A DNA stretch of 64,000 nt, taken from the NCBI RefSeq assembly GCF_030384885.1, contig NZ_CP128613.1; one strand, 5' to 3'. The notes beneath the pieces were generated by a model, which saw nothing but the letters and a program-made list of their open reading frames with translations, did no database searches and was not told the DNA's origin. The translations under genes and the position numbers were made by a program. Origin of the DNA: Escherichia coli. GTDB taxonomy: Bacteria; Pseudomonadota; Gammaproteobacteria; Enterobacterales; Enterobacteriaceae. Positions 48,035 through 52,591 of this stretch are shown here, piece after piece (position 1 is the first letter of the stretch; each line of letters opens with the position of its first letter).

Positions 48035-48211
48035 TAGAGTAAGTAACTGGTTAATTTACATTCTGGTCGCGTGCGCAAATACGCTTTTCCTCACACAGTT
48101 GTCAAGTGTTACGTTTAGATAATTGCTATCCGGAAAAGCTTCTGCTATTTATAGCGGCCTCATTTTTCCCCCGAACATGGGGATCGATAGTGCGTGTTAA
48201 GGAGAAGCAAC

Positions 48212-48667
48212 ATGCAAGAAGGGCAAAACCGTAAAACATCGTCCCTGAGTATTCTCGCCATCGCTGGGGTGGAGCCATATCAGGAGAAGCCGGGCGAAGA
48301 GTATATGAACGAAGCCCAGCTGGCGCACTTCCGTCGTATTCTGGAAGCATGGCGTAATCAACTCAGGGATGAAGTCGATCGCACCGTTACACATATGCAG
48401 GATGAAGCAGCCAACTTCCCGGATCCGGTAGACCGTGCAGCCCAGGAAGAAGAGTTCAGCCTCGAACTGCGTAACCGCGATCGCGAGCGTAAGCTGATCA
48501 AAAAGATCGAGAAAACGCTGAAAAAAGTGGAAGACGAAGATTTCGGCTACTGCGAATCTTGCGGCGTTGAAATTGGTATTCGTCGTCTGGAAGCGCGCCC
48601 GACAGCCGATCTGTGCATCGACTGCAAAACGCTGGCTGAAATTCGCGAAAAACAGATGGCTGGCTAA
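48212..48667 (+). CDS. dksA: RNA polymerase-binding transcription factor DksA
   Basis: Track ORF 48194..48667; start placed at ATG preceded by AAGGAGAAG, giving [26 protein letters not shown] (151 aa); C4 zinc finger [25 protein letters not shown]. Confidence 0.95.
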
Positions 48668-48695
48668 TTACAGCCGTTCCATCACGTTTACCACA

Positions 48696-48723
48696 GGCGG
48701 GAAATGCTCCCGCCTTATTTTTT
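48696..48723 (+). terminator. Intrinsic terminator downstream of dksA, overlapping the gluQ start
   Basis: GGCGGGA-aatgc-TCCCGCC perfect 7-bp stem followed by TTATTTTTTG, read directly. Confidence 0.65.
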
Positions 48724-49630
48724 GTTCAACGAGATGACAGACACACACTATATTGGTCGCTTCGCCCCCTCTCCTTCTGGCGAGCTTCATTTTGGCTCTC
48801 TGATTGCCGCGCTTGGAAGCTTTCTACAGGCTCGCGCCCGGCAAGGTCGCTGGCTTGTTCGCATTGAAGATATCGATCCGCCTCGTGAAGTTCCCGGTGC
48901 CGCAGAGACCATCCTGCGCCAGCTGGAACATTACGGTCTACACTGGGACGGCGATGTTCTCTGGCAATCGCAACGTCACGACGCCTATCGCGAAGCACTC
49001 GCATGGTTACATGAGCAAGGGTTAAGTTATTACTGCACCTGCACGCGCGCACGTATTCAAAGCATTGGCGGTATTTACGACGGTCATTGCCGGGAGTTGC
49101 ATCATGGGCCAGAAAACGCTGCTGTACGTATTCGCCAGCAGCATCCGGTCACCCAGTTTACTGACCAGCTGCGCGGCATTATTCATGCCGACCAAAAACT
49201 GGCGCGGGAAGATTTTATTATTCATCGCCGTGATGGTTTGTTTGCCTATAACCTGGCGGTGGTGGTGGATGATCACTTCCAGGGCGTGAGCGAAATTGTC
49301 CGCGGGGCAGATTTGATCGAACCCACGGTGCGCCAAATCTCGCTGTACCAGCTTTTTGGCTGGCAGGTGCCAGATTACATTCATTTGCCACTGGCACTTA
49401 ATCCACAAGGCGCTAAACTTTCCAAGCAGAATCATGCGCCTGCGTTGCCGAAAGGCGATCCACGCCCGGTACTAATCGCGGCACTTCAATTTCTGGGTCA
49501 ACAGGCAGAAGCACACTGGCAGGATTTCAGCGTCGAGCAAATTCTCCAGTCAGCCGTCACAAACTGGACGCTGACTACCATTCCTGAGTCGGCAATTGTA
49601 AATTCAACATTCTCAAATGCCTCATGCTGA
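48704..49630 (+). CDS. gluQ: Glutamyl-Q tRNA(Asp) synthetase (truncated GluRS paralogue)
   Basis: Track ORF 308 aa; [17 protein letters not shown] class-I aminoacyl-tRNA synthetase HIGH-type motif; start may instead be the ATG at 48734 (MTDTHYIGR). Confidence 0.85.
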
Positions 49631-49689
49631 GCTATGATTAGCCGCTATTTTTTTGTCCTGAATGATGTTTGACACTACCGAGGTGTATT

Positions 49690-51087
49690 ATTTTTACCCG
49701 AGTCGCTAATTTTTGCCGCAAGGTGCTAAGCCGCGAGGAGAGCGAAGCTGAACAGGCAGTCGCCCGTCCACAGGTGACGGTGATCCCGCGTGAGCAACAT
49801 GCTATCTCTCGCAAAGATATCAGTGAAAATGCCCTGAAGGTAATGTACAGGCTCAATAAAGCGGGATACGAAGCCTGGCTGGTTGGCGGCGGCGTGCGCG
49901 ACCTGTTACTTGGCAAAAAGCCGAAAGATTTTGACGTGACCACTAACGCCACGCCAGAGCAAGTGCGCAAACTGTTCCGTAACTGCCGCCTGGTAGGTCG
50001 CCGTTTCCGTCTTGCTCATGTCATGTTTGGCCCAGAGATTATCGAAGTCGCAACCTTCCGTGGACACCACGAAGGTAACGTCAGCGACCGTACGACCTCC
50101 CAACGCGGGCAAAACGGCATGTTGCTGCGCGACAACATTTTCGGTTCCATCGAAGAAGACGCCCAGCGCCGCGATTTCACCATCAATAGCCTGTATTACA
50201 GCGTGGCGGATTTTACGGTCCGCGATTACGTTGGTGGCATGAAGGATCTGAAAGACGGCGTTATCCGTCTGATTGGTAACCCGGAAACGCGCTACCGTGA
50301 AGATCCGGTACGTATGCTGCGCGCGGTTCGTTTTGCCGCCAAATTGGACATGCGCATCAGCCCGGAAACCGCAGAACCGATCCCACGCCTGGCAACCTTG
50401 CTAAACGATATTCCTCCGGCGCGTTTGTTTGAAGAATCTCTGAAACTGTTGCAAGCGGGCTACGGTTACGAAACTTATAAACTGCTGTGTGAATACCATC
50501 TGTTCCAGCCGCTGTTCCCGACCATTACCCGCTACTTTACGGAAAATGGTGACAGTCCAATGGAGCGGATCATTGAGCAGGTGCTGAAGAATACCGATAC
50601 GCGTATCCATAACGATATGCGCGTGAACCCGGCGTTCCTGTTTGCCGCCATGTTCTGGTACCCACTGCTGGAGACAGCACAGAAGATCGCCCAGGAAAGT
50701 GGCCTGACCTATCACGACGCTTTCGCGCTGGCAATGAACGATGTGTTAGACGAAGCCTGCCGTTCACTGGCGATCCCGAAACGTCTGACGACGTTAACCC
50801 GCGATATCTGGCAGTTGCAGTTGCGCATGTCCCGCCGTCAGGGTAAACGCGCATGGAAATTACTCGAACATCCGAAGTTCCGCGCCGCTTATGACCTGCT
50901 GGCACTGCGTGCTGAAGTAGAACGCAACGCCGAGCTACAACGTCTGGCGAAATGGTGGGGTGAGTTCCAGGTTTCTGCGCCGCCAGACCAAAAAGGGATG
51001 CTTAACGAACTGGATGAAGAACCGTCACCGCGTCGTCGTACTCGTCGCCCGCGCAGACGTGCGCCGCGCCGTGAGGGCACCGCATGA
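49690..51087 (+). CDS. pcnB: Poly(A) polymerase I; start assigned to an AUU codon
   Basis: Track ORF 49669..51087; E. coli pcnB is known to initiate at AUU, so start placed at the ATT codon preceding [12 protein letters not shown] (465 aa); [17 protein letters not shown] nucleotidyltransferase motif. Confidence 0.85.
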
Positions 51088-51563
51088 CAGTGGCGTATAT
51101 TGCCATCGGCAGCAATCTGGCCTCTCCGCTGGAGCAGGTCAATGCTGCCCTGAAGGCAATAGATGACATTCCTGAAAGCCGCATTCTTGCCGTTTCTTCG
51201 TTTTACCGCACCCCACCGCTGGGGCCGCAAGATCAACCCGATTACTTAAACGCAGCCGTGGCGCTGGAAACCTCTCTTACAGCAGAAGAGCTCCTCAACC
51301 ACACACAGCGTATTGAGCTGCAGCAAGGTCGCGTCCGCAAAGCTGAACGCTGGGGACCGCGCACGCTCGATCTTGATATCATGTTGTTTGGTAATGAAAC
51401 CATTAATACCGAACGACTCACCGTCCCGCATTACGATATGAAGAATCGCGGCTTTATGCTGTGGCCGCTGTTTGAAATCGCGCCGAAGCTGGTCTTTCCT
51501 GATGGGACAGGATTAGACAACTTATTACGAATAAATAAGTTCGCTGAATTAAATAAATGGTAA
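51084..51563 (+). CDS. folK: 6-hydroxymethyl-7,8-dihydropterin pyrophosphokinase
   Basis: Track ORF 159 aa [26 protein letters not shown]; overlaps pcnB stop. Confidence 0.95.
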
Positions 51564-51886
51564 GGCAATAGTTTTGCAAATATAAATAAATTCCGAAAAT
51601 AGCTTTCACGCAATTACAATAATCCCTCCTCTAAGTTATAACCGTAATAATATAATATTCACCCCACTCAACAGCCCCACCCATATACACCATTATCATC
51701 ACATTAGATATTTAGTTTTACTTAAAAATGAATTAAGTGGATATTTAATTTTAAATATGCACAATATCCCCCCTAATGATGAACAGATGTTACATTCGGT
51801 AAATCCAAGCATCCATCATTAACAAACCATTCACCTTTTCTTTATCGAGACTTCCTGCTTGAGGAGGTCTGATTAAAGTTAAACTC
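51564..51886 (+). promoter_or_regulatory. AT-rich upstream region of the yad fimbrial operon
   Basis: About 320 bp non-coding, very AT-rich with A/T tracts, immediately 5' of yadN; typical of silenced fimbrial promoters; no specific elements assigned. Confidence 0.35.
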
Positions 51887-51910
51887 ATGGAATATGATTC
51901 AAGGATTTTT

Positions 51911-52495
51911 ATGTCTAAAAAATTAGGTTTTGCGCTCTCTGGTCTTATGCTGGCAATGGTTGCAGGTTCCGCTTCTGCTGATATGGACGGTGGTCAGTTA
52001 AATATCAGTGGTCTGGTTGTTGATAATACCTGTGAAACCCGCGTAGACGGCGGTAACAAAGATGGCCTGATCCTGCTGCAAACTGCAACCGTTGGAGAAA
52101 TCTCTGAGGGTGTGCTGGACACTACCGTTGGTGCTAAAGCTAAACCATTCAGCATTACTGTTGACTGTAGTAAAGCTAATCCGGCACCAGGCAGCACAGC
52201 AAAAATGACTTTCGGTTCAGTCTTCTTTGGTAACAGTAAAGGAACGCTGAATAATGATATGTCAATTAATACGCCATCGGACGGTGTTAATATTGCTCTG
52301 CACAATATCGAAGGTTCTGCTATCAAACAGGTTAAAATCAACAACCCTGGCGATATCTATTCCAAAGCACTGGATGCAACTTCTAAATCCGCAACTTATG
52401 ACTTTAAAGCATCTTATGTTCGTGCAGATGCGAGCCAACCAGGCACTGCTGGTTATGTGAAAACTAACACTGCATATACCGTTACTTATCAGTAA
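51911..52495 (+). CDS. yadN: Fimbrial major subunit YadN
   Basis: Track ORF 51887..52495; start placed at [24 protein letters not shown]-terminal ...TAYTVTYQ. Confidence 0.85.
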
Positions 52496-52591
52496 GCATT
52501 TCCATCCATATTCATGAATTGAATACATACAGGGAATAATATTGATATTTCATACTACTCCCTGTTTTTTTAACTCTGCCAGGAATGGTTT

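Follow-up and report, generated by a model that had tools for sequence, protein, structure and literature searches.

The pcnB gene of Escherichia coli, which encodes poly(A) polymerase I (PAP I), starts with the noncanonical codon AUU. This start was established by Binns and Masters in 2002 (Mol Microbiol 44:1287), whose work we take from its citation in PMC2939334 and PMC3561954, and PMC5499595 and PMC4447247 agree with it. According to Binns and Masters, as cited in PMC3561954, the AUU codon is conserved in other Proteobacteria. The cell contains about 30 to 50 molecules of PAP I, whose overexpression is lethal (PMC3561954), and the AUU codon limits the amount of the enzyme in E. coli (PMC3561954, PMC4447247). 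In vitro, mRNAs with AUU are weak competitors of those with AUG, and their activity depends on the context of the codon (PMC5499595).

According to PMC4447247, PMC5499595 and bioRxiv 10.1101/063800, pcnB and infC are the only two E. coli genes with a confirmed AUU start, and the codon limits the expression of both. The infC gene encodes initiation factor IF3, and its AUU start (PMC4447247, PMC5499595, PMC9410913) is part of a feedback loop in which IF3 discriminates against the AUU of its own gene. PAP I, in contrast, has no known role in start codon selection, so the AUU of pcnB would be a fixed throttle by comparison, one that may respond to the level of IF3. The ebpA gene of Enterococcus faecalis, an unrelated gene in an unrelated organism, also has a rare ATT start that attenuates expression, and gene callers wrongly place its start at a canonical codon (PMC4447247). 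In ebpA this wrongly annotated codon follows the ATT, whereas the canonical codon picked for pcnB by the ORF list precedes the ATT.

Here we compare these systems with pcnB in a 64,000-nucleotide stretch of DNA filed under E. coli (the window). The gene order sfsA-dksA-gluQ-pcnB-folK matches that of K-12, and dksA-gluQ-pcnB-folK have the same order and strand in K-12 and in NZ_CP027579.1. The K-12 gene (b0143) also shares with the window the 465-residue product, the Shine-Dalgarno sequence, the ATT, the first 27 coding nucleotides and the promoter-like block. It differs in having ACT, where the window has ATT, before the start codon, and the host of the window belongs to a divergent Escherichia lineage. 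The NCBIfam equivalog model for PcnB, NF008634, scored 999.1 bits (cutoff, 702), with residues 1 to 464 of the protein aligned to profile positions 1 to 468 of 469. All three Pfam domains were found, namely the PolyA_pol head PF01743 (E = 1.8e-41), the RNA/SrmB-binding domain PF12627 (2.2e-20) and the arginine-rich C terminus PF12626 (5e-40). Crystal structures of E. coli PAP I (3AQK, 3AQL and 3AQM) contain chains nearly identical to the protein; they start at residue 28 of the 465-residue form and are uninformative on the N terminus. The features of the locus are collected in the table.

Features of the pcnB locus (positions in the window)
Feature	Position	Strand	Basis
Promoter-like site of the sigma-70 type (TTCTCA-17 nt-TATGAT) that overlaps the gluQ stop codon	49610..49638	+	Only promoter-like match in 49450-49900
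5' leader of the pcnB mRNA, noncoding, U-rich	49639..49679	+	In-frame stop codons at 49639 and 49663
TTG opening the mechanical 472-codon ORF; rejected as conserved start	49669..49671	+	No Shine-Dalgarno sequence; in-frame TGA at 49663
Shine-Dalgarno sequence GAGGTG serving ATT49690	49680..49685	+	Invariant at -10 to -5 in 80/80 species listed; -7.2 kcal/mol with the 16S rRNA 3' end
Extra in-frame ATT of the tandem ATT-ATT; probably not the main start	49687..49689	+	Alignment to K-12; Shine-Dalgarno spacing
ATT, very probable initiation codon of pcnB (read as fMet)	49690..49692	+	RefSeq CDS starts; 80/80 species listed; Shine-Dalgarno spacing; published AUU
CDS of pcnB (poly(A) polymerase I), 465 codons and a stop codon	49690..51087	+	NCBIfam NF008634; Pfam; identity to K-12
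Codons 2 to 9, frozen at synonymous sites	49693..49716	+	Synonymous codon entropy
First in-frame ATG (Met52)	49843..49845	+	In frame; weak Shine-Dalgarno sequence, -3.9 kcal/mol

We conclude that pcnB in the window is, with high probability, translated from the AUU at 49690. Read directly between 49660 and 49720, the frame around the start is TGA (49663) TGT TTG (49669) ACA CTA CCG AGG TGT ATT (49687) ATT (49690) TTT ACC CGA GTC GCT AAT TTT TGC. The mechanical ORF extends from 49669 to 51087 and has 472 codons. The first-pass annotation had taken its first codon as ATG; the bases are in fact TTG. The ORF list prints every first codon as M, and the nearest ATG triplets, at 49662 and 49665, are both out of frame. 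The same annotation had held that the start of this ORF is probably not the true start and has no obvious Shine-Dalgarno sequence, and we agree on both points: the best anti-Shine-Dalgarno duplex in the 22 nt upstream of 49669 has an energy of +0.4 kcal/mol, and RefSeq annotation, NCBIfam alignment, the pattern across 80 species, the Shine-Dalgarno sequence and the literature all point to ATT49690. As proposed there, this ATT directly precedes TTT ACC CGA GTC (FTRV...) and, read to the stop codon ending at 51087, yields a product of 465 residues, 462 of them identical in K-12 PcnB; the limitation of PAP I by AUU, also invoked there, is what the literature cited above states. The comparison with the 5' region of K-12 pcnB that it had called for gave the same Shine-Dalgarno sequence and the same ATT as the start. 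The observation is hence partly confirmed, with TTG in place of ATG and a tandem ATT that had been overlooked.

Annotation in other genomes agrees with this start. The RefSeq CDS of pcnB begins at the position equal to 49690 and has 1,398 nt in NZ_CP027579.1, the only genome that matches the window at 100%, in NZ_AP027764.1, the only other complete genome with the tandem-ATT 57-mer, and in K-12 MG1655. Position 1 of the NF008634 profile aligns to residue 1 of the 465-residue form. The AUU start of pcnB is thus an already known textbook case that is already correct in RefSeq, and not a new discovery. A search of the searchable literature for N-terminal peptides or start-site ribosome profiling of PcnB from the window strain or K-12 found none.

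The energy of pairing between GAGGTG and the 3' end of 16S rRNA lies at about the 2nd percentile of the background of anti-Shine-Dalgarno duplexes in the window (median, -2.4 kcal/mol; 1st percentile, -7.9 kcal/mol). Judged by this energy, the pcnB site is not poor, although PMC3561954 cites a description of it as a "poor ribosome binding site". ATT49690 follows 4 nt after the end of GAGGTG and 6 nt after the GAGG core, a functional spacing. We rejected as unsupported the idea that a hairpin sequestering the Shine-Dalgarno sequence makes the site poor, as two predicted folds compete: the single-sequence fold pairs it with an upstream ACACU (-3.6 kcal/mol), and RNAalifold pairs it with UACCCG in codons 2 to 4 (-4.5 kcal/mol), where the arms are invariant, so that covariation is not assessable. 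Controls with shuffled flanks gave the same accessibility of the Shine-Dalgarno sequence (0.26 ± 0.17, compared with 0.28 for the actual sequence), and the start region did not exceed shuffled sequences in structure (z = +0.74).

The comparison set comprised the closest 80 Enterobacteriaceae species loci from one scan of species-representative genomes, with protein identities of 87 to 100%, anchored on the start. ATT occupies the aligned start in all 80 species listed, and the 4-nt spacer between it and the invariant Shine-Dalgarno sequence varies among them, as does the sequence upstream of -11. From +3 to +38 all seven variable sites are synonymous in the ATT frame, and codons 2 to 13 are invariant as amino acids across the 80 species. 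The upstream codons behave differently: codon -1 encodes T, I, P, A or N, codon -4 encodes P, T, S, L or Q, and the seven extra codons of the TTG-started ORF show nonsynonymous variation, indels and in-frame stops. Among the species listed, the first in-frame stop on the 5' side of the ATT is found between -15 and -177, and three of the loci (L051, L060 and L078) read TAA CCG AGG TGY AAC ATT. ATT hence forms the 5' boundary of amino acid conservation, and no conserved canonical start lies upstream of it. With stops up to -15 on one side and only synonymous change on the other, these alignments indicate that translation must start between -15 and about +6, where ATT is the only near-cognate start codon.

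Could translation instead begin at the in-frame TTG49669, yielding the protein of 472 residues implied by the ORF list and by older descriptions of pcnB? TTG is a canonical bacterial start codon, it opens the longest ORF and it lies inside the likely pB transcript; UUG is also an intrinsically better initiator than AUU and in frame. An A/U-rich leader can support initiation independent of a Shine-Dalgarno sequence, and the leader upstream of TTG49669 is A/U-rich, which favors such a start, and minor initiation at 49669 may occur. The introduction of PMC3561954 gives UUG as the initiation codon of pcnB. However, the discussion of the same paper names AUU, as does the later literature; the confusion of TTG and ATT therefore exists in print. 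TTG49669 lacks a Shine-Dalgarno sequence of its own, and GAGGTG falls inside its putative coding stretch, within the seven extra codons that vary so freely among species. TTG or ATG is present at -21 in 28 of the 80 species listed (TTG in 26, ATG in Salmonella arizonae and diarizonae), but TTG is absent in 54. A further nine species have TTG at -30 or -33, and in 43 no ATG, GTG or TTG intervenes between the ATT and the first in-frame stop before it. The RefSeq CDS and the NCBIfam profile, moreover, begin at the ATT. We consider the TTG start highly improbable.

The other candidates adjoin ATT49690 or lie inside the gene. ATT49687, which arose by a lineage-specific C-to-T change, might be used alone or beside ATT49690 and would give a protein of 466 residues (M-I-F-T-R-V...). 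It is the same near-cognate codon, in the same frame and behind the same Shine-Dalgarno sequence, and this state has been kept in four or more genomes or lineages of Escherichia. Functional Shine-Dalgarno spacing is usually about 5 to 9 nt. ATT49687, however, stands 3 nt after the GAGG core (1 nt after the end of GAGGTG), below this range, whereas ATT49690 has 6 nt; codon -1 varies freely across species (ACT, ACC, AAC, AAT, GCT, CCT or ATT) and acts as a spacer, and PGAP starts both genomes with the tandem at the second ATT. We regard main or shared use of ATT49687 as very unlikely. Initiation at the downstream GTG of codon 12 (49723) or at ATG Met52, with the ATT region as an untranslated leader, has in its favor that this GTG is invariant in all 80 species listed and that ATG52 has a weak Shine-Dalgarno sequence. 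In addition, PMC2939334 raised the possibility that pS1 transcripts are translated from an AUG that follows the ATT, which would give an N-terminally shortened PAP I, and reported two immunoreactive bands on Western blots; ATG 49843 is probably the alternative "+1(b)" start hypothesized for the transcripts of this internal promoter. Yet codons 2 to 13 change only synonymously in the ATT frame, so those codons are translated. GTG12 has no Shine-Dalgarno sequence (+0.5 kcal/mol), pS1 was active only in stationary-phase ppGpp0 cells, and the NCBIfam equivalog covers PcnB from residue 1. The ATT could remain the start even if a minor internal isoform were made as well, and a downstream codon as the actual start of pcnB is extremely improbable.

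This leaves the AUU at 49690, and the rare tandem ATT-ATT is a modest addition of this analysis to the known case. Alignment to K-12 shows a C-to-T change at 49688, which gives ATT ATT in place of ACT ATT. The exact 57-mer with the tandem occurs in 2 of 5,424 complete "E. coli" genomes (NZ_CP027579.1 and NZ_AP027764.1), both with the PGAP start at the second ATT, and ATT is found at codon -1 in 2 of the 80 species representatives listed, E. whittamii (L005) and Escherichia sp. MOD1-EC7003 (L017). Because of the Shine-Dalgarno spacing and the behavior of codon -1 as a free spacer across species, the second ATT is presumably the one used in the window strain. The window is not typical of E. coli. 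A 601-bp probe (49400 to 50000) finds a match of at least 99% identity in strain 2013C-4282 alone among 5,424 complete "E. coli" genomes, and about 3.3 kb within 48190 to 52585 are only 91 to 93% identical to representatives of E. coli, E. albertii, E. whittamii and Escherichia sp. MOD1-EC7003. The window probably comes from a cryptic lineage of Escherichia that has been deposited as E. coli.

The sequence around the start is also conserved at synonymous positions. Among the 80 species listed, a conserved block extends from about -11 to +28 and is broken by the variable 4-nt spacer. The mean synonymous codon entropy of codons 1 to 9 is 0.04 bits, compared with a gene mean of 0.945 bits; no other stretch of nine codons in the gene has so low a value, and 0 of 20,000 permutations reached it. 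The frozen codons include the rare codon CGA. A second patch of low variation covers codons 36 to 48 (49795 to 49833), just upstream of the in-frame ATG 49843. In the same genomes, the 5' codons of the neighboring genes folK (1.10 bits) and gluQ (0.89 bits) are not frozen, which led us to reject the freeze as a general property of gene starts, whereas those of dksA (0.01 bits) are. The 5' synonymous freeze is hence gene specific but not unique to pcnB. RNA structure, repeats and reported regulators explained neither of the two pcnB patches, and a literature search for small RNA regulators of pcnB returned nothing usable. Most simply, the freeze would reflect strong selection on the sequence context of initiation at a weak start codon. 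There is also a small chance that the arrangement of C-GAGGTG, 4-nt spacer, ATT and 26-nt frozen block is an undescribed target of a trans-acting regulator (a protein or a small RNA) or a context element tuning the AUU, which would set the level of PAP I, with the extra AUU perhaps serving as a minor second start in this strain. We also considered the direct repeat CCYGAGTCGNNAATT (49583 to 49597 and 49697 to 49711), which flanks the pcnB promoter, as a pair of operators and rejected it as probably due to chance. The copies match at 12 of 15 positions in the window and 13 of 15 in K-12, and the upstream copy is present only in Escherichia, the best match elsewhere being 8 to 10 of 15.

The promoter-like site upstream of the leader is probably the published promoter pB, the major promoter of pcnB (PMC2939334). 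TATGATTAGCCGC or a close variant is present in all 80 species listed, 70 of which have TTCTCA at the -35 position. The block CTGAGC-TATGATTAGCCGC-TATTTTTTT, which contains the gluQ stop codon, the -10 box and a U-run (49628 to 49655), is kept in all 80 with minor variants. The spacing of the -10 box and the ATT varies between 42 and 183 nt in these species without 3-nt periodicity. In several representatives of Citrobacter, Salmonella, Klebsiella/Raoultella, Kluyvera and Intestinirhabdus it is 159 to 183 nt, which implies an insertion in their leaders; elsewhere it is 42 to 78 nt. The start sites of another promoter, pS2, were published at -263 to -265 from the ATT. Counted from 49690, they fall 6 to 8 nt downstream of a TAAACT box (49414 to 49419), so this positional cross-check fits. 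PMC2939334 noted that the actual AUU start lies upstream of the promoter once proposed by Liu and Parkinson. Within the leader, an out-of-frame ATGATG (49662/49665) opens a 15-codon ORF (49662 to 49709) that runs across the Shine-Dalgarno sequence and the ATT of pcnB. This ORF is probably not expressed, as its ATGs have no Shine-Dalgarno sequence (+1.3 and +0.4 kcal/mol) and are absent outside Escherichia.

The stop codon of pcnB and the start codon of folK overlap (ATGA, 51084 to 51087), an arrangement that suggests translational coupling of the two genes, and the folK start alternates across species between ATG (38) and GTG (31). The gene gluQ has an ambiguous start, which the ORF list and the K-12 annotation place at ATG 48704 (308 residues) but PGAP, in the identical genome, at 48734 (298 residues); other genera do not consistently share the 48704 codon. 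For dksA, the ORF list begins at GTG 48194 (157 residues) and RefSeq at ATG 48212 (151 residues); codons 2 to 10 of dksA are frozen at synonymous sites across 60 species (0.01 bits). In Salmonella enterica subsp. diarizonae and arizonae (L022 and L023, positions 1480 to 1482), an in-frame ATG replaces the TTG at -21 of pcnB. Gene callers almost certainly pick this ATG, and PcnB annotations there may carry seven spurious N-terminal residues; alternatively, this clade may truly have a second pcnB start.

Taken together with the literature, the locus suggests the following course of events. Transcription would most likely start a few bases past the TATGAT -10 box (49633 to 49638), and GAGGUG in the mRNA would position the ribosome at the AUU of 49690 for synthesis of the 465-residue PAP I. 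Initiation at this codon is expected to be inefficient, because AUU pairs imperfectly with the initiator tRNA and IF3 discriminates against it, and this would keep the toxic enzyme at a few tens of molecules per cell. We hypothesize, by analogy with infC, that discrimination by IF3 is the limiting step for pcnB.

Nothing in our analysis alters the current understanding of pcnB initiation. It illustrates that ORF finders restricted to ATG, GTG and TTG extend pcnB by seven codons, or by more in other species, and that comparative data alone can recover a true noncanonical start without an appeal to prior knowledge. The influence of context on AUU initiation could be studied by mutation, with the tandem ATT and the frozen 5' codons as guides. 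PAP I marks bacterial RNAs for decay by adding poly(A) tails to them and controls the copy number of ColE1- and R1-type plasmids. As the enzyme is toxic when made in excess, the weakness of its AUU start is a genuine means of regulation.
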